A stretch of DNA of 43,953 bases from Flavobacteriaceae bacterium (GTDB lineage Bacteria; Bacteroidota; Bacteroidia; Flavobacteriales; Flavobacteriaceae), in contig CANCJZ010000001.1 of NCBI GenBank assembly GCA_947378465.1, forward strand, positions 1 through 43,953. Reading direction: 5' to 3'. Position 1 is the first letter of the stretch. The number at the start of each line of letters is the position of its first letter. Shown here one piece after another: positions 1 through 8,486 of this stretch. Made by a program: the position numbers and the translations under genes. Below the pieces are notes generated by a model. The model saw nothing but the letters and a program-made list of their open reading frames with translations. It had not been told where the DNA came from and made no database searches.

Positions 1-83
1 ATTTCACTTTATGCCAACTTAAGAGTCTCGATAGCACTGTCTATATTACCATCTTTTTTTAGTTCTGTTGCTTTTTTAAACAA

Positions 84-232
84 AAAAAACTCGGTTTGAT
101 TACGGTCTTTTCCTATAATGAATTTGCTCATAGTAGCTTGTTTTACAGCATAAATATAAGAAAAAACATTTTTTTTACAAGTAAAAACTCCTTTAAAAGT
201 ATACTTTATTAAAGGAGTTTTTAGACAGTTTG
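84..232 (-). mobile_element. Truncated left end of an IS1182-like insertion sequence
   Basis: Minus strand starts CAAACTGTCTAAAAACTCC directly after the attC-like ...CTAACGT. Perfect 15-bp subterminal inverted repeat (182-196/209-223). ATG at 131 encodes MSKFIIGKDRNQTEFF, resembling from memory the N-terminus of Bacteroidota IS1182 transposases. The frame then continues into unrelated sequence (LFKKATELKKDGNIDSAIETLKLA) and stops at 9-11. Confidence 0.6.
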
Positions 233-360
233 ACGTTAGGCGCTTTGCGAGGTTGCGGACTAAATATGCCTTTACTTTTAGGTTATTACTGAACTTTATT
301 GATATGCCAAAACTTTAAATTAATCACTTACCCCGCAATCTTGCAAAACGCTTGTTGGAG
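233..360 (-). other. attC-like recombination site (hairpin)
   Basis: Minus strand reads CTCCAAC (inverse core), AAGCG..., then ...CTAAC GT (core truncated by the IS). Arms 240-258 GCGCTTTGCGAGGTTGCGG and 333-351 CCGCAATCTTGCAAAACGC pair with 16/19 Watson-Crick plus 2 G-T on the + strand. Confidence 0.7.
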
Positions 361-439
361 GAAGCCATATCTTTTTCCACCACGATTTTCCGTTTTTTAT
401 TCGGATTATTTATTTTTGTTAAGTACCTATTTTACTGGT

Positions 440-628
440 GCACAAGTCTTATCTATTTTGGCGTAAGCCTTATCTACTTTTGCACAAGTCTTAACTGATT
501 TGGCAGTTGTCATATTTACTTTGGCATAAGGCTTATATAGTTTTGCGGTTGCTTGTTTTACTTTGGTACAAGCCACATCTATTTTGGAATAAGGCCTATG
601 CAGTTTTGAATAAGCCTTATTTAATATA
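440..628. repeat. Degenerate 21-bp tandem array A (9 units)
   Basis: Units start at 440, 461, 482 ... 608, e.g. gcacaagtcttatctattttg / gcgtaagccttatctactttt / gcataaggcttatatagtttt. Confidence 0.85.
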
Positions 629-634
629 ACTATT

Positions 635-1609
635 TTATTCTATTATTAATTTACTATTACTTGTACCATAGTCGTTTTTTATTGTTATTAGATAAGTTCC
701 AGTTTGATAATTTGAAATATCTAATTGTGTATTTATGTTATTAACTTCTATGGTTTTTAATATTCTTCCTTGCATATCAGATAATGTTATTTCATTTATA
801 TTTTTATTGTTACTTGTAATATTCACTATGGTATTTGCTGGATTAGGAAAAATTTTGAAGCTACTATTTTCATAGGTTAATGTAGATAAACCTTGACGAT
901 TGGCAATTGGAAATGTATTGCAATCAACAAGTACAAAATTTGGTAAATGATAGTTATTATAAAAAGTATAAGATTGTCCTTGTTTTGTATAACAATGAAT
1001 ACGAGAATACATACCGCCATTATTATCAATACTCATAGGTGTAAAACAATCATTAAAAATCATTCCAACCCCTTCAAGTGCAGAACCTCCTGAAAGAATA
1101 TCAGTTCCTGAAAATATCATTTTAGAATTTAATCCTGATATAAGCATTGAATTGATGGTGCTTGTTGAGCAATATTGATTTGTTAAACCATCATAATGTA
1201 AAAAATAATTATCCCCTAATTGCGTATTTAATAGTAATTGATTATCAAAATATACAATATCACTACTATTAACATCATATTTCATAAAAAATTTACCAGT
1301 ATTATCTTCTCTGAAGTATCCAACAAATTCTGTAAAATTTGAAGATTGTGGATAAATGACAGATGAATAGTCATATTCGTAACCTATATAATAATAAGTC
1401 CTAAACATTTTATAGTATATATAGCCACCAATATTTTCAAAACCATCAAAAAACAATGTTTCGTATCTGAAATTTTGAAAACCAGCATTAGTATCTCTGT
1501 TAATTATTTTCCATTCGGAAGTTGCATCAAGATAATTGGAATAATAAATTTGTGAATAGCCAAAATTACATACAAGTAATAAAACCATTAATTTTAATGT
1601 ATTTTTCAT
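635..1609 (-). CDS. Secreted protein with T9SS type A C-terminal sorting domain
   Basis: N-terminal signal peptide; C-terminus FKIFPNPANTIVNI...DMQGRILK...LDISNYQTGTYLITI...KLIIE is a typical type A CTD. Confidence 0.9.
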   Translation of the reverse strand: MKNTLKLMVLLLVCNFGYSQIYYSNYLDATSEWKIINRDTNAGFQNFRYETLFFDGFENIGGYIYYKMFRTYYYIGYEYDYSSVIYPQSSNFTEFVGYFREDNTGKFFMKYDVNSSDIVYFDNQLLLNTQLGDNYFLHYDGLTNQYCSTSTINSMLISGLNSKMIFSGTDILSGGSALEGVGMIFNDCFTPMSIDNNGGMYSRIHCYTKQGQSYTFYNNYHLPNFVLVDCNTFPIANRQGLSTLTYENSSFKIFPNPANTIVNITSNNKNINEITLSDMQGRILKTIEVNNINTQLDISNYQTGTYLITIKNDYGTSNSKLIIE

Positions 1610-1614
1610 GATGG

Positions 1615-1884
1615 TTAGTTTTTAATTAATTTTAAAGTTTTTTGTTTAGTATTACTATCTAATCTTGCAATATAATATCCATTTGATAATTGAGAAAGAT
1701 TTATTAAATTATTTTCCTTGGGAACAATAGATAATGTATAAACATTTTCACCTAAGATATTGTAAATCGAAATTTTCTCATAATCTTCTATTTCTTGTGT
1801 TAAGTCAATATTAAAAAAGCCATATTGGTTAATTTTTTTATTGAGTTTTGTTCGCGTATCGTGTAGCTCAATGGTTTCCTCCAA
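1615..1884 (-). pseudogene. Fragment: isolated T9SS type A CTD with no signal peptide or cargo domain
   Basis: GFFNIDL...ISIYNILGENVY...LSQLSNGYYIARL...KTLKLIKN. The nominal TTG start is the TT-G of the GTT crossover core, so this is probably an internally deleted gene. Confidence 0.65.
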
Positions 1885-1950
1885 CTAGTATATAGGCGAT
1901 ATAAAACTTCGCCAATCTACCCCAATTTGGGTGTATGTACGAAGTTTTGT
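1879..1950 (-). other. attI-like primary cassette insertion site
   Basis: Minus strand ...CCTATATACTA GTTGGAGG; upstream imperfect palindrome AAAACTTCG (1903-1911) / CGAAGTTTT (1940-1948) with inner CCCAA/TTGGG. Lies between the recombinase remnant and the first cassette. Confidence 0.5.
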
Positions 1951-1966
1951 TTCTCTTTGCTTTTTT

Positions 1967-2000
1967 CAAATATAAATAATATTTTTTACAAATCATCAAA
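1967..2000 (-). promoter_or_regulatory. Bacteroidota sigma-A type promoter facing the cassette (Pc-like)
   Basis: -7 TATATTTG (1974-1967); -33 TTTG (2000-1997); 22-bp spacer. Confidence 0.5.
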
Positions 2001-2118
2001 AGGGCTTTTTATTCATTGAATGCTTTTAGTGCTAACATGGGGTTAGATTTCAGTAGCCTTACTTTGTGTTTAAAAGTTCTGGAATGTATCTTAAATCGGT
2101 GCTAATTTCAAACAAATA
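1986..2118 (-). pseudogene. C-terminal remnant of an IntI/XerD-like tyrosine recombinase
   Basis: Manual translation: YLFEISTDLRYIPELL, frameshift near 2070, then SKATEI*PHVSTKSIQ*IKSPFDDL*. Matches box II ...DLRxIQELLGHxSxKTTEIYTHV...SPxD; the catalytic Tyr codon is now TAA (2043-2045). Confidence 0.85.
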
Positions 2119-2322
2119 GGAGAGGGTTGATAGCATTTATAATAGTTCCGTAGCATAGCTAATTTCTTGGGTGATAGTGCTGCTATTGGTCTTTTTTATC
2201 CCTTTCCCACAGTCCATCAATCCCCAAAAAAGGTTCAAGTTCCCCTTCCAGTTCCCCTTCCTTCCAATATACATTATTCAAGAACATCCACCACTTCGTT
2301 TCCGTCTCGTGCCCACCCAGTT

Positions 2323-2351
2323 TGTCACCTCGACCGAAGGGAGAGGTCACA
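2323..2351. repeat. REP-like imperfect palindrome
   Basis: tgtcacctcgaccgaagggagaggtcaca: GC-rich intergenic hairpin of a type I recall as dispersed in Flavobacteria. Confidence 0.55.
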
Positions 2352-2449
2352 TAAAGAAGCTCCCTCCCCAAAGCAAATATTACAGAGTAAACAACACAAA
2401 TCCACTGCTACGGTTCCGTCTAGTAGCTCTCCACCAACTAATTTTCTCG

Positions 2450-2701
2450 TTTCAAAACACTTTTGCACTCTTTCAAAATAGTTTTCTACTCTTTCAAAAC
2501 ACTTTTACACTCTTTCAAAATGTTTTTGTTCTCTTTCAAAACACTTTTGCACTCTTTCAAAATAGTTTTGCACTCTTTCAAATCATTTTTCTACTCTTTC
2601 AAAACAGTTTTGCACTCTTTCAAAATAGTTTTGTTCTCTTTCAAATCATTTTTCTACTCTTTCAAAATAGTTTTGCACTCTTTCGAAATACCATATTACA
2701 A
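2450..2701. repeat. 21-bp tandem array B (12 units)
   Basis: tttcaaa recurs at 2450, 2471 ... 2660, and tttcgaaa at 2681; consensus tttcaaaatagttttgcactc. Confidence 0.95.
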
Positions 2702-2823
2702 TTTGTAAATTATTTTGTCGTATAAGGAACCTCATTCGTTCTCTCATAAAACACATTTGTACAATAAGGAAGTCCAAACATACAGTAACCACAAAGTACA
2801 ATATACAACATACATTATACAAC

Positions 2824-2857
2824 AAAAAAAAGCCTTTCAAACAAATGAAAGGCTTTT
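2824..2857 (-). terminator. Intrinsic terminator of usp
   Basis: Stem aaaagcctttca / tgaaaggctttt with a T-run on the minus strand, about 20 bp past the stop codon. Confidence 0.85.
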
Positions 2858-2875
2858 CTATAAAGTTATTTAAAA

Positions 2876-3700
2876 TTATATTTTAAAAGTAACCACCGGT
2901 CTAGATGCGTGATTTACTAAATCCTCACTAATACTTCCATTAAAGAAGTGTGATAAACCTTTTCTTCCGTGAGTACTCATTCCAATTAAATCAGCATCAA
3001 TACTGTTAGAGAAATTCAAGATTCCTTTCTCAACATTTGTCTCATTATAAATATGAGTTTCGAATTTGTTAATCGTAAATCCTGCTGTAAACTTATTCAT
3101 GATCTCAGTTGATTCTGAAGTAGGTTTAAAGTTGTTAGGAGTATTAATCATTGCTAAATGAAGTGTAGCATCAAATTTATTAGCAAAATCCACCACTTTT
3201 TGGAACGGTTTTTTGATTTCATCTGCAAAGTCAGAAGCAAATACAAAGTTATCCACTTTGAAATCGTTCTCTTCTTTTTTGATAATCAATACAGGTACAT
3301 CAGAATTTCTAACTACTTTCTCTGCATTTGATCCAATAAACATTTCTTTGTAGCCACTTGCCCCGTGAGATCCCATTACAATCAAATCAACATTATTCGT
3401 TTGGCTAATTTTTAAAATTCCATCAAATGCTAATTCAAATTGAATAACTTCTGAAACTTTAAGGCCATCTAAATAATCCTCATCCATCAAATCTTCTAAT
3501 CTTCTAATGGCTGCGTTTTTGAAAAACATAATCTCTGGTATCTCGGTTCCTGATCCAACGGCATCACTCGCTTGATGAGGTAATTCTAACATGTGTAGTA
3601 AAATGATTTCTCCATCATTTTTTCTTGCAATTTGTGCGGCAACTCTCAAGGCATACTCTGCGTGCTTTGAAAAGTCGGTTGGGATTAAAATCTTTTTCAT
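2876..3700 (-). CDS. Universal stress protein (two USP domains)
   Basis: MKKILIPTDFS; DLIVMGSHG...GSNAEKVVR; second domain DLIGMSTHGRKG...GSISEDLV. Start moved to ATG 3700. Confidence 0.95.
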   Translation of the reverse strand: MKKILIPTDFSKHAEYALRVAAQIARKNDGEIILLHMLELPHQASDAVGSGTEIPEIMFFKNAAIRRLEDLMDEDYLDGLKVSEVIQFELAFDGILKISQTNNVDLIVMGSHGASGYKEMFIGSNAEKVVRNSDVPVLIIKKEENDFKVDNFVFASDFADEIKKPFQKVVDFANKFDATLHLAMINTPNNFKPTSESTEIMNKFTAGFTINKFETHIYNETNVEKGILNFSNSIDADLIGMSTHGRKGLSHFFNGSISEDLVNHASRPVVTFKI

Positions 3701-3821
3701 GGTAAGATATAAATTATTTGGTTTTGTAAGTTTTTTAATTTGTTGATAAAGGTACAAATATATTTTAATTTCAATAAATGATAATTGTCATATTAAAAAT
3801 ATTTAACTTTAATAATTCATA

Positions 3822-3851
3822 TTTGTTAAATTAAAAAAAATTGTATATTTG
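3822..3851 (+). promoter_or_regulatory. Promoter of rimP-nusA-infB
   Basis: TTTG (3822-3825), 18-bp spacer, TATATTTG (3844-3851). Confidence 0.7.
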
Positions 3852-3881
3852 CAGCATTATTTATTAGCATGACTAAATAAT

Positions 3882-3907
3882 GAGGGAAGCACTGCTTCCC
3901 TCTTTTT
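3882..3907 (+). promoter_or_regulatory. rimP leader hairpin / attenuator
   Basis: GAGGGAAGCA-C-TGCTTCCCTC followed by TTTTT, between the promoter and the rimP ATG; matches the known rimP-leader architecture. Confidence 0.7.
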
Positions 3908-3915
3908 ATAAAATT

Positions 3916-4383
3916 ATGACATTTAAAGAGAAAGTTTTAGCGGTTTTAAATTCTAAGTTAGTGGAACGAAGCGATTTGTTTTTAATCGACCTTAACATTA
4001 ATGACGCTAACAAAATCACCATCGCTATTGATGGAGATAGTGGAGTAGTTCTTCAGGATTGTATTGATATCAGCCGTGCAGTCGAAGACGGTTTAGACAG
4101 AGAAGAACAAGACTTCTCTCTTGAAGTAGCTTCTGTTGGTGTTGGATCCCCTCTTAAATTTGTCCGTCAATACAAAAAGAATATTGGCAGAACTTTAATT
4201 GTTAAAACTGCTGATGATAAAATAGAAGCCGAATTAGTAGACGCTAATGATGATTTTATTGTCTTGACTTGGTCAGCTAGAGAACCTAAAAAAATTGGTA
4301 AAGGAAAAGAAACAGTTCAAAAAGAACTTCAAATCCCTTACTCAGATATAAAAGAAGCAATTGTTACAATAAATTTTAATTAA
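3916..4383 (+). CDS. rimP: Ribosome maturation factor RimP
   Basis: DCIDISR...[14 protein letters not shown] motif; first gene before nusA. Start set at ATG 3916. Confidence 0.95.
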
Positions 4384-4391
4384 TAAGAATA

Positions 4392-5633
4392 ATGGAAAAT
4401 ATTGCATTAATCGAATCATTCTCAGAGTTTAAAGACGATAAACTTATTGATCGAGTAACGCTTATGGCGATTTTGGAAGATGTATTTAGAAATGCTTTAA
4501 AAAAGAAGTATGGCTCTGACGATAACTTTGACATCATTATCAATCCTGATAAAGGAGATATGGAAATCTGGAGACGCAGAATTGTAGTTGCTGATGATGA
4601 TTTAGACTTAGAGAACGAAGAGATTACTTTAACTGAAGCTAGAAAAATAGAGCCAGATTTCGAAATCGGAGAAGAAGTTTCTGAAGAAGTTAAACTTATT
4701 GATTTAGGTAGAAGAGCAATATTAGCGTTACGCCAAAACCTTATTTCTAAAATCCACGAACACGATAACACCAATCTTTACAAACAATTTAAAGATCTTA
4801 TCGGTGAAATTTATACGGCTGAAGTGCACCATGTTCGCCCAAGAGTTGTAATTTTGGTCGATGATGAAGGTAATGAAATTGTGCTTCCTAAAGAAAAACA
4901 AATCCCTTCCGACTTCTTTAGAAAAGGAGATAACGTGAAAGGTATTATTGAAAGCGTTGAATTAAAAGGTAATAAACCTCAAATTATTATGTCTAGAACA
5001 GCTCCTAGCTTTTTAGAAAAATTATTTGAACAAGAAATCCCTGAGGTATTCGACGGTTTGATTATGATTAAAAACGTAGTCAGAATCCCTGGTGAAAAAG
5101 CAAAAGTAGCCGTTGATTCTTATGATGATAGAATTGATCCTGTTGGAGCTTGTGTAGGTATGAAAGGTTCTCGTATTCACGGTATCGTTCGTGAATTAGG
5201 AAACGAAAATATTGATGTGATTAATTATACAACCAATATGCAGTTGTATATTACTAGAGCATTAAGCCCTGCTAAAGTTTCGTCAATCAAAATTGATGAA
5301 GAAAACAAAAGAGCAGAAGTGTTCTTAAAACTAGAAGAAGTTTCTAAAGCTATTGGTCGTGGAGGACACAATATCAAATTAGCAGGTCAATTAACAGGAT
5401 ATGAATTAGACGTAATTAGAGAAGGTGCTGCCGTTGAAGAAGATGACGTTGAATTAACGGAATTCTCTGATGAAATCGATGGATGGGTAATTGACGAATT
5501 TGCTAAAATTGGTTTAGATACCGCTAGAAGTATCTTAAAACAAGACGTGGCTGATTTAGTGAGAAGAACAGATTTAGAAGAAGAAACAATTTTAGAAGTA
5601 ATAAAAATTTTAAAAGAAGAATTTGAAGACTAA
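4392..5633 (+). CDS. nusA: Transcription termination/antitermination factor NusA
   Basis: S1 and KH domains; DPVGACVGMKGSRI; AIGRGGHNIKLA. Confidence 0.98.
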   Translation: MENIALIESFSEFKDDKLIDRVTLMAILEDVFRNALKKKYGSDDNFDIIINPDKGDMEIWRRRIVVADDDLDLENEEITLTEARKIEPDFEIGEEVSEEVKLIDLGRRAILALRQNLISKIHEHDNTNLYKQFKDLIGEIYTAEVHHVRPRVVILVDDEGNEIVLPKEKQIPSDFFRKGDNVKGIIESVELKGNKPQIIMSRTAPSFLEKLFEQEIPEVFDGLIMIKNVVRIPGEKAKVAVDSYDDRIDPVGACVGMKGSRIHGIVRELGNENIDVINYTTNMQLYITRALSPAKVSSIKIDEENKRAEVFLKLEEVSKAIGRGGHNIKLAGQLTGYELDVIREGAAVEEDDVELTEFSDEIDGWVIDEFAKIGLDTARSILKQDVADLVRRTDLEEETILEVIKILKEEFED

Positions 5634-5669
5634 TTCAAATTCTCAATAAAATAACATTAAAAAGATTTT

Positions 5670-8486
5670 ATGTCTGAAGGAAATATTAGAATAAACAAAG
5701 TTTTAAGGGAATTAAATATTTCTTTAGAAAGAGCTGTAGATTATCTTAAGGATAAGGGAATTGCTATTGAAGCAAGTCCAAATACAAAAATTTCTGACGA
5801 TGTATACAATACTCTTTGCGGTCAATTTGCTGGTGACAAAGGCAATAAGGAAGCGTCAAAAGGTGTTGGTGAAGAGATTAAAAAAGAGAAAGAAGCACTT
5901 CGTCTTGAAAGAGAAAGAGAAATTGAAGAGAAAAAAAGACTAGAAGAAGAGCGTCAACGTCAAGAAGTAATTAAAGCTAAAGCTGTTGTTACAGGGCCAA
6001 AACAAGTGGGTAAAATTGACTTGGAACCTAAAGCCGCTCCTGTTCATTCTGAAAAACCTAAAGAGGTAAAAGCTGTTGAAAAACCAACTGAAAAACCAGT
6101 TGAAAAAGTAGCTCCTAAAATGGAAGCTGCTCCTAAAGCAGTGGAGCCAACTCCTGTGGTAGAAAAAGCCGTAGAAAAACCAGCTGAAAAACAAGTGGAA
6201 AAAGCTCCTGTAGCTGAAACTCCTAAAACAGCTGAAGAGGTTGCCGCTGACGAAACACACACTACACAATATCAAAATCTTACTGGACCTACTTTAACAG
6301 GTTTGAAAATTGATTTATCACAATTCAACAAGCCTAAAAAGAAAAAAGAAGAACCAAAGATTACTCCTAACAAACCTGGAGATAACAAAATCGTTGATAA
6401 AAACAAACGAAAAAGAATCCCGCCTAAACCAGGTGAAAACAAACCAGGTACTCCTGGCGCGAATACGGGTACTGGTCCTAGAATTGCCGGAGGTGGTGGT
6501 AAGTTTACTCCTCGCCCTGGTGGTGGAGGTGGAGGTTTCCAAAAAGGAAACAGACCTGCTATTGTTCAAAAAGTAGAGCCTACAGAAGAAGAGGTTAAAA
6601 ACCAAATCAAAGAAACTCTTGAAAGATTACAAGGTAAAGGAAACAAATCCAAAGCTGCGAAATACAGAAGAGATAAAAGAGATACCCACCGTCAACGTTC
6701 CGACGATGAACAAAGAGCCATTGACGAAGGTAGCAAAACAATTAAAGTAACGGAATTCGTTACCGTTGGTGAAGTAGCTACCATGATGGATGTGCCAATT
6801 ACTAAAGTGATTGGAACTTGTATGTCTCTTGGAATTATGGTTACCATGAACCAACGTTTAGATGCGGAGACTTTGTCTATTGTAGCAGATGAATTTGGTT
6901 ATGAAGTAGAATTCATTACTACCGATATCGAAGAAGCGATTGAAGTGGTTGAAGATAAAGCGGAAGATTTAGTAACTCGTGCTCCTATTGTTACGGTTAT
7001 GGGTCACGTCGATCACGGTAAAACTTCCCTTTTGGATTATATCCGTAAAGAAAATGTTATTGCCGGTGAATCAGGAGGTATTACACAGCACATTGGTGCT
7101 TATGCAGTAACTTTAGATAATGGTCAAAAAATCACCTTCCTTGACACTCCTGGTCACGAAGCCTTTACCGCTATGCGTGCTCGTGGTGCTCAAGTAACCG
7201 ATATTGCTATTATCGTGGCAGCTGCCGATGATGATATCATGCCTCAAACTAAGGAAGCGATCAGCCATGCGCAAGCTGCTGGAGTTCCTATGATTTTTGC
7301 AATTAATAAAATTGATAAGCCTGCCGCTAATCCTGAAAAAATTAAAGAGCAATTAGCTGGTATGAACTTATTAGTAGAAGACTGGGGTGGTAAATACCAA
7401 TCGCACGATATTTCTGCTAAACAAGGAACTGGTGTTAAAGAACTTTTAGAAAAAGTATTATTAGAAGCAGAGCTTCTTGACTTAAAAGCAAATCCTAACA
7501 AACCAGCTGTTGGAACAGTTGTGGAAGCACAATTAGATAAAGGTAGAGGATATGTATCTACAATATTAGTTCAAGCAGGTACTTTAAAAGTAGGTGACTA
7601 TGTGTTAGCGGGTAAAAATCATGGTAAAATTAAAGCCATGTATGACGAAAGAGGACACAGTGTTAAAGAAGCAGGTCCATCAACTCCAATCTCAATTTTA
7701 GGTTTAGATGGTGCACCTACAGCGGGTGATAAGTTCAATGTATTTGAAGACGAAAGAGAAGCAAAACAAATTGCAGCGAAACGTACTCAATTAATGCGTG
7801 AGCAATCCGTTCGAACTCAAAAACACATTACGCTTGCCGAAATCGGTCGTCGTATTGCTTTAGGTCAATTTAAAGAATTGAACATTATCCTTAAAGGAGA
7901 TGTGGATGGTTCTGTAGAAGCTTTATCAGATTCGTTCTCTAAATTGTCTACAGAAGAAATTCAAATCAATATCATTCATAAAGGGGTTGGAGCAATCACG
8001 GAATCTGACGTTATGTTAGCTTCTGCATCCGATGCCATCATTATTGGATTCAACGTTCGTCCTGCAGGTAATGCAAAACAATTGGCCGATAAAGAAGAAA
8101 TTGACATTAGAAACTACTCCATCATCTATGATGCTATTGACGATTTAAAAGATGCAATGGAGGGAATGCTTTCTCCAGAAATGAAAGAAGAAATTACGGG
8201 TACTGCTGAGATTCGCGAAACATTCAAAATCTCTAAAATTGGTACCATTGCAGGATGTATGGTTACCGATGGTAAAATATTCCGTAACTCTAGAATCCGT
8301 TTAATCAGAGACGGTGTAGTGATCTTTACAGGTGAACTTACTGCTTTGAAACGTTTCAAAGACGATGTGAAAGAAGTTTCTAAAGGATATGATTGTGGTA
8401 TCCAAATCAAAAACTACAACGATATTCAACAATTGGATTTAATCGAAGCCTTCCAAGAGGTAGAAGTAAAGAAAAAGTTGAAATAA
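5670..8486 (+). CDS. infB: Translation initiation factor IF-2
   Basis: [26 protein letters not shown] and NKID GTPase motifs. Confidence 0.99.

Follow-up and report, generated by a model that had tools for sequence, protein, structure and literature searches.

A decayed recombinase platform in a Flavobacteriaceae genome as the probable head of a rAID/integron-like gene cassette array

The stretch of DNA analysed here (the window; 43,953 nt) is the start of contig C1 of a Flavobacteriaceae genome (3.05 Mb, 35% GC, 90% complete), and the minus strand near its left edge carries the remnant of a recombinase gene with a single gene cassette behind it. We consider it quite probable that this remnant is what is left of the head of a Bacteroidota cassette array akin to rAID and integrons. 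In such an array, the likely role of the co-oriented Xer-like tyrosine recombinase is to insert promoterless cassettes, and to excise them again, by exchange at G|TT; its substrates would be a docking site on one side and folded hairpin sites on the other. A first-pass annotation, made from the sequence alone, had proposed a Bacteroidota cassette system with its array downstream of a co-oriented recombinase, and had listed on the minus strand, in order, a recombinase pseudogene, a promoter motif, a palindromic site, a cassette, a hairpin, and the end of an insertion sequence (IS). All six parts were found, and comparisons across relatives, among which the closest named recombinase loci are from Flavobacterium, bore out the proposed system. 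The feature is real and the first reading is supported; the copy itself is inactive in cis.

Anatomy of the window platform

The recombinase survives as the C-terminal part of an Xer-like tyrosine recombinase pseudogene (1986..2209, minus strand) with an internal deletion, a frameshift, and two in-frame stops. The span first assigned to it, 1986-2160, did identify a real tyrosine recombinase remnant but was too short, the true extent reaching about 2209. The stretch 2204-2107 encodes counterparts of residues 229-255 and 258-261 of an intact homologue, joined to those of residues ~307-347; about 45 codons, including the H-x-x-R motif, are deleted, and the codon of the catalytic Tyr (2045-2043) reads TAA, so the catalytic residues of a tyrosine recombinase are destroyed in this copy. 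A 'YATELL' frame at 2160-2137 was discarded as a wrong-frame reading, the true match being residues 229-261.

Next on the same strand comes the motif TATATTTG (1967..1974, minus strand), which matches the Bacteroidota -7 promoter consensus TANNTTTG (PMC6847099). It is conserved in 40 aligned platforms and is the predicted cassette promoter, no RNA reads having been seen over the window platform in the runs examined. It is followed by an attI-like docking site (1883..1955, minus strand), in which two palindromic boxes 43 bp apart form a long inverted repeat ahead of TATATACTA G|TT, with the G at 1885. The palindrome folds at z-scores of -3.4 and -3.1 relative to shuffled sequences, and its two boxes covary. 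Promoter motif, palindrome, and GTT stand behind the stop codon in nearly all intact relatives.

The cassette that starts at this G|TT (1885/1884) and ends at G234 measures 1,651 bp (234..1884, minus strand), matching the 1.65-kb unit with co-oriented open reading frames (ORFs) described earlier: it runs from T1884 to G234 and holds two co-oriented frames. Its ends are complementary over 14 of 15 nt, with the C·A mismatch of the family at +8. It closes in an attC-like hairpin site of 123 nt (234..356, minus strand; AAC at 356-354), whose 19-20-bp stem contains one A·C mismatch and which ends AACG. The left end of an IS1182-family element (83..233, minus strand) is inserted at the crossover and, as it starts at 233, inside the crossover itself, the window site ends GTC instead of GTT.

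Hairpin sites in relatives and their fold

Recombinase loci for comparison were the best 80 of at least 584 relatives, in a scan over 6 of 64 parts of the species genomes. Two models of the site, a DNA profile and a covariance model (R1), were built from 59 sites picked by a hairpin heuristic, 57 of which came from recombinase loci. The DNA profile gave 113 hits in the 80 loci, all downstream of the recombinase gene and co-oriented with it, and none in 612,988 upstream bases. Because of the origin of the training sites and the heuristic used to pick them, this downstream count and the pairing percentage given below are partly circular; the real control is the upstream zero. Sites were present in 33 of the 41 loci with at least 2 kb of downstream DNA, and in the arrays of relatives the hairpin recurs between variable genes, as the first-pass annotation had anticipated on both counts.

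R1 detected 7 sites in the window genome. It also scored in 23 of 24 further congeneric genomes and, more widely, in 85 of 151 genomes sampled from the phylum Bacteroidota. The enzyme profile, at an E-value cut-off of 1e-60 that may admit related enzymes not heading arrays, hit 51 of the 151 phylum genomes, 44 of which had sites. Rfam contained no credible family for positions 1-4000 of the window, and none at gathering score for six arrays.

Among 77 de-duplicated sites, the top 18 covarying pairs all fell on one register, joining positions 5-24 with 81-100, which is interrupted by a conserved, two-sided A·C mismatch at 18/87. All 19 stem pairs of the 59-site alignment vary on both sides, and 83.6% of its cells are paired compared with 32-39% when the arms are slid, a percentage inflated by the choice of these sites as hairpins; none of 500 shuffles reached the covariation score of this alignment. 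The covariation analysis revealed no conserved one-sided bulge (extrahelical base) in the stem. An unpaired central spacer occupies 1 nt on one arm and 4-5 nt on the other. The outer arms can pair only once the cassette ends have been joined; they consist of 7 pairs, a position that is C·A in 60 of 69 cassettes and never paired, and then 4 pairs; the inner stem repeats this spacing from GYT at 8-10. From this we infer two inverted half-sites around an asymmetric spacer, a plan resembling attC, with mismatches where integrons have flipped-out bases.

Alternatively, the sites could recombine as ordinary duplex DNA, the palindromes being inverted binding sites for which no single-strand fold is needed. 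Tyrosine recombinases lacking the insertion typical of the integron integrase IntI normally use duplex sites (see also PMC4889954), and the closest solved structures to the enzyme studied here are those of archaeal XerA. However, a duplex site would conserve sequence and not long-range complementarity, whereas here the arm sequences vary freely but stay complementary across a spacer of ~80 nt, and each half-site has a fixed, non-pairing C·A at one and the same offset. We therefore regard duplex recombination as unlikely and retain the folded site.

Cassettes as probable mobile units

In each of 87 units, the 7 nt behind GTT were compared with the complement of the 7 nt ahead of the unit's own closing AAC; they agreed at 5.7 of 7 positions, compared with 3.3 within standing sites (n = 95) and 2.9 after shuffling (maximum 3.45 in 2,000 shuffles). 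Sequence comparison thus delimits the units by GTT and a complementary AAC, with a G|TT crossover. The earlier remark that the cores depart from GTTRRRY held, RRRY following GTT in 9 of the 87 units. Docking sites were paired where they are ≥80% identical before GTT; the sixteen pairs diverge directly after it (36% at +21 to +37), and no pair shares a first cassette. Five homologous pairs were present among 103 cassettes with matched ends, and the 967-bp and 691-bp pairs have different neighbours from G|TT on. A co-oriented ORF was found in 90 of these 103 cassettes, an opposite ORF in 3, and none in 10.

These data bear on the idea that the hairpins are self-spreading repeats, similar to repetitive extragenic palindromes (REPs) or terminators, whose likeness to integron sites is a coincidence. 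The window genome does hold other dispersed palindromic repeats just upstream, and an IS prefers the hairpin sites. Self-spreading repeats, however, would not make the 5' flank of a gene complement its own 3' flank rather than the adjacent one, nor would they swap neighbours exactly at G|TT. The REP-like reading is largely refuted, and we give it very little credence next to that of mobile cassettes.

Homologues of the window cassette were found in 6 of 350 other genomes. The one in genome G176 has the same cassette end, followed by another cassette in place of the IS.

An Xer-like enzyme without the IntI insertion

The end of the window platform was matched in 17 of 41 genomes, and five loci carried a whole enzyme of 347-364 aa. 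R204, K229, H294/R297, H320, and Y329 are invariant in 59 intact homologues. Of five enzymes compared with TIGR02249 (integron integrase), all scored 198-208 bits, below its cut-off of 265. At the IntI-specific insertion near patch III the enzyme has 16 residues and VchIntIA 60, and the alignment to 2a3v breaks at query residues 257-273 versus 186-246. Judged from these features, the enzyme is without the IntI insertion and hence the system is not an integron; the earlier label of 'integrase' is not to be taken as IntI. By fold, archaeal XerA is the closest match, followed by IntI.

The enzyme has an extra N-terminal domain of 65 residues that weakly resembles the HARP domain of SMARCAL1 (profile E 6e-4; Pfam HARP in 6 of 61 members). 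HARP domains bind junctions of single- and double-stranded DNA.

Two further loci were noted. At L046:7620-8883, two consecutive cassettes lack a hairpin site behind them. Each has there instead a copy of one 75-nt element, plus a recombinase 3' stub, promoter motif, and docking site. On a Chryseobacterium plasmid (L287:12001-23749), the platform is intact and five sites were scored. The same plasmid has two degenerate sites with neighbours that may be further site-seeking parasites, namely an IS110 transposase and a group II intron gene.

Probable relocation and decay of the platform

The window genome contains four enzyme-less platform remnants, on C1, C40, C89, and C102, and the platform end was matched in 70 of 101 congeners, in many of them several times. 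Intact recombinase genes have varied chromosomal neighbours. No intact orthologue of the window locus was found, because the recombinase and uspA, the universal-stress-protein gene that flanks the platform as its chromosomal neighbour (2876..3757, minus strand), never adjoined in either comparison: the ~1.5 kb next to uspA were free of recombinase genes in the 29 other best loci of that gene, and uspA was absent from the 80 recombinase loci. Some orphan docking sites occupy positions at which the complete gene is retained in other species. Most simply, the platform would have moved repeatedly, after which the gene decayed but the promoter and the docking site were retained. Capture of 3' stubs at one fixed breakpoint was rejected in favour of decay; the starts scatter from profile position 704 to 849.

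The further remnants lie at C40:12674-13500, C89:111-2030, and C102:1177-1404, and C66:10121-12620 of the same genome holds a small enzyme-less array.

Such wandering platforms would also suit an account in which genuine cassettes are mobilized by a different enzyme, be it host XerC/D or an unrelated integrase, and the co-oriented recombinase moves the platform only. Platforms at many chromosomal places, the four remnants without an enzyme, the several platforms in many congeners, and the sites in 41 of the 100 phylum genomes without a recombinase hit are all in keeping with it. On the other hand, the docking site abuts the enzyme stop codon in ~59 of 68 loci (by pattern), sites lie solely downstream of the gene, no conserved site was evident by eye upstream of 25 intact genes, and the orphan docking sites fit decay. 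We judge this account quite unlikely and take the co-oriented recombinase to be the probable cassette recombinase.

As the enzyme gene is dead and an IS1182-type element splits the downstream site, we predict that the window cassette can no longer move. The promoter and the docking site appear undamaged in sequence and could still serve in trans.

Proposed mechanism and points that weigh against it

We propose that a cassette would leave as a circle, its two ends rejoined into a folded site. In that site, an asymmetric spacer would be flanked by inverted half-sites, each consisting of GTT or GYT, 7 bp, the C·A mismatch, and 4-6 bp. The enzyme, devoid of the IntI insertion, would recognize this fold, possibly aided by its weakly HARP-like N-terminal domain of 65 residues. 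The circle would then enter at the docking site, and the inserted cassette would be transcribed from the TANNTTTG promoter. Direct support extends to the anatomy, the recurrence across the phylum, the strand and position bias of the sites, the covariation, the cognate end-matching, and the change of neighbours at G|TT.

A number of results count against this reading, in addition to the partial circularity of the site models and the sites in genomes without a recombinase hit. A profile search of the window's 90%-complete genome yielded no intact enzyme, and no excision joints were found in eight runs, all of which consisted of contigs; runs with small shares were left aside. Eight of the 41 loci with at least 2 kb of downstream DNA had no site. 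The window hairpin, proposed at first as attC-like, scores 86 bits (E 3e-17) on the 59-site model, which includes it, but folds by itself only modestly better than shuffled sequences (z -1.9 and -2.1). The bottom strand is the more stable one in just 52 of 77 sites. For the N-terminal domain, Foldseek ranked HARP first at an E-value of 0.12, and a wide fold search did not list HARP at all (best Z 5.1, no clear fold). Finally, the main gene of the window cassette lies outside any detected site in genomes G295 and G311 and has another upstream neighbour in four freshwater runs; this gene is therefore not always in this cassette.

An IS1182 subgroup at the crossover

The IS end, correctly recognized as such in the first-pass annotation, is of IS1182 type and starts at 233. 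The transposase, starting at 131, is cut off in the window, and its 40-aa piece alone gave no family hit. The window probably shows less of the element than the sample contains, because a long contig runs on with ~960 other letters. In genome G123, one complete copy of 1.73 kb shares the left end of the window element and has the DDE transposase between short inverted ends that marks IS1182 membership. It matches NF033551 in two pieces (E 1.5e-58 and 4.6e-24), each under the cut-off because a stop splits the transposase. Miniature derivatives of this subgroup exist.

A 17-letter pattern from inside the IS end gave 31 matches in 17 of 301 genomes. Out of 30 IS loci, two were dropped as chance matches and one lay at a contig edge; 27 were scored. 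A site ends at the IS junction in 19 of the 27 (18 full, 1 partial), always in one orientation, and in 17 of 24 when the three loci seen before the pattern was chosen are left out. It is possible, though on the doubtful side, that the IS reads just CGTT and that insertions in genes are selected against, which would account for its excess at cassette sites. Eight of the 27 ends are off scored sites, five G280 copies are at CGTT in ORF-like DNA, and in G280 alone the ratio is 4 of 10 (P 0.09). Against this stands the scarcity of targets, since five genomes hold 11-58 scored sites each versus 668-1,207 copies of AACGTT, of which ~17% lie outside ORFs in the window genome (G000); a binomial test with the least favourable background gave P 0.007, the genomes being kin. 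These counts suggest that one IS1182 subgroup in one genus prefers cassette sites, not strictly, and selection may contribute. The preference is limited to this subgroup and genus because none of 30 IS1182 loci from across the phylum had a scored site at an IS end; only four of them have similar ends, and three of these four have flanks that look hairpin-like by eye and were unscored by the profile. A 4-bp target duplication was rejected, as left and right flanks disagree in several complete copies and 2-3 bp fits better.

In G280, IS copies sit at successive cassette junctions on contigs C37, C74, C76, and C95 (L235-L245) and break the assembly there. C40 of the window genome carries another IS1182 piece, which sits reversed at an AACG junction. 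We found no publication on IS1182 at cassette sites or on the long Flavobacterium sites, subscription journals not being covered.

Comparison with known systems

The nearest published system is rAID-1 of Bacteroidales, with a 5' XerD-like recombinase, co-oriented short genes, and intergenic motifs reminiscent of integrons (bioRxiv 10.1101/471110; PMC12247911). It is defined by a recombinase >44% identical to B. fragilis BF9343_RS08045 and by downstream genes of ≤41% GC. Its close homologues are called Bacteroidales-restricted, and the available text gives no crossover point, fold, or recombination assay. A plasmid search with an intact enzyme returned 201 records, one of which is a B. ovatus immunity-gene array of the rAID type (L289:7719-16355), with 43-46-nt sites and an ATT core. 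Its enzyme is 45% identical over 271 aa to the family enzyme, B. ovatus and not BF9343_RS08045 being the protein compared. In a quick tree with long branches and no IntI rows it nests in the family; no claim of origin rests on the recombinase tree.

The end-matching in this array is 6-7 of 7 in all eight cases, compared with 1-4 in place. The two systems have in common the 5' XerD-like recombinase, the co-oriented genes, and the cognate end-matching. They also share at least two co-oriented downstream genes, the window having two frames (one a fragment) and its relatives long arrays. In contrast, Flavobacterium-type sites are 115-130 nt long with GTT, whereas those of B. ovatus are 43-46 nt with ATT and unmatched by R1, a contrast drawn from the B. 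ovatus array repeats and not from the published motif figure. The window cargo, moreover, has tails of the type IX secretion system (T9SS) and does not consist of orphan immunity genes. The criterion of ≤41% GC downstream is non-discriminating here, because the whole genome has 35% GC. By its sequence features, then, the system appears to work like an integron, does not pass as one by its enzyme, and seems best filed as a long-site variant of the rAID kind. The arrangement itself has already been published, as rAID-1 of gut Bacteroidales.

With classical integrons, the system shares a promoter, a docking site, promoterless cassettes running from G|TT to a folded site, AAC/GTT pairing, an unpaired spacer, and the position of the newest cassette next to the promoter. 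It differs from them by the absence of the IntI insertion, the extra N-terminal domain, the fixed C·A mismatches with no conserved extrahelical stem base, and end-matching that extends to 12 nt, GTTRRRY occurring in just 9 of 87 units. The features listed for attC include two or three extrahelical bases (Nivina 2016, PMC5027507). An integron group with an inverted integrase is known in Treponema, and recombinases without the IntI domain near attC have been judged not to be IntI (Cury 2016, PMC4889954). IntegronFinder 2 reported a single complete Bacteroidetes integron (Neron 2022, PMC9024848). The preference of the IS has parallels in IS1111-attC insertion sequences and group IIC-attC introns, which are likewise mobile parasites enriched in cassette recombination sites (PMC3001079). 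The fixed C·A mismatch per half-site with no flipped-out base, the IS1182 subgroup at the crossover, and the link to VEB-1, VEB-3, and tet(X3/X5) described below are absent from the literature searched, in which no search was aimed at a tet(X) or VEB origin.

Links to resistance genes

A truncated family recombinase immediately precedes each of tet(X3), tet(X5), and blaVEB-3, in the same orientation, and is followed by a G|TT core. The blaVEB cassette (L290:1502-2574 and L288:6001-7763) has ends and a closing site of Bacteroidota type, and on plasmids with VEB-3 a docking-site-like palindrome and a truncated recombinase precede blaVEB-3. The class 1 integron cassette of VEB-1 also begins at this GTT, and its closing site matches R1 (35 bits, E 2e-7), while the adjoining aadB attC does not match; the veb1 ends follow the pattern of 7 pairs, C·A, and 4 pairs. 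Behind tet(X3) lies half a hairpin site (E 3.5e-4), and the ends match less well there. The sequence preceding tet(X3) was present in 52 plasmid records, 49 of them from Acinetobacter.

The genes annotated 'tnpF/xerD' before tet(X3) and tet(X5) (L285:6004-8118, L286:4516-6537) are truncated family members, each followed by the TATATTTG motif and the G|TT core.

The veb1 attC has been described as atypical and poor for IntI1 (Aubert 2012, PMC3518468). Flavobacteriaceae have been proposed as the source of tet(X), with 'xerD' named as a flanking gene and not tied to cassettes (Zhang 2020, PMC7494873). In contrast to what is proposed here, the available text of these two papers links neither veb1 nor xerD-tet(X3) to a Bacteroidota cassette system. 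The sequence matches make a Bacteroidota origin of the blaVEB and tet(X3/X5) units, which occur on plasmids of pathogens, likely; no donor genome for these units was identified.

Cargo and genomic setting

The two frames of the window cassette both relate to T9SS. The one next to the docking site (1615..1884, minus strand) encodes 89 aa with a lone T9SS C-terminal sorting domain (PF18962, E 1e-9) and is a gene fragment. The other (635..1609, minus strand) encodes a predicted secreted protein of 324 aa with a T9SS C-terminal domain, identified by profile match; its N-terminal part belonged to no named family, including in an atlas search. Repeat comparison revealed degenerate 21/63-bp repeats in the cassette tail (411..620).

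Upstream of the pseudogene lie a palindromic REP-like repeat, an 11-copy 21-bp tandem repeat, and an AT-rich repeat (2310-2360, 2450-2690, and 2775-2835, respectively), each with look-alikes elsewhere in the genome. Positions 3880-8486, beyond uspA, hold what we take to be rimP, nusA, and infB, an ordinary core operon. Positions 83-2052 are matched by a long contig from two runs (X1/X2), possibly of the source sample, which continues into the ~960 different letters mentioned above; bases 1-82 are unmatched by it and are a possible assembly artefact at the contig end.

Implications

Taken further, these results lead us to lean, by a little, towards a second, phylum-wide class of integron in Bacteroidota that current tools miss, whose Xer-like enzyme, devoid of the IntI insertion, would act on folded sites that bear C·A mismatches. 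On this proposal, rAID-1 would be a short-site gut branch of the class, the IS1182 subgroup its own site-seeking parasite, and the class the source of the blaVEB cassette and of the tet(X3)/tet(X5) platform in Acinetobacter, which would explain the poor handling of the veb1 site by IntI1.

A dead copy thus reveals a system present in over half of the sampled Bacteroidota genomes, where integron surveys find almost nothing. The defined crossover and the half-site anatomy make the proposed capture of genes by rAID-type arrays directly testable, and they raise the question of integron-style recombination by a tyrosine recombinase without the domain thought to be required for it. The match of the veb1 site and the truncated enzymes before tet(X3/X5) and VEB-3 point to an environmental route by which resistance genes may be turned into cassettes, and R1 provides a search profile for the surveillance of such genes.

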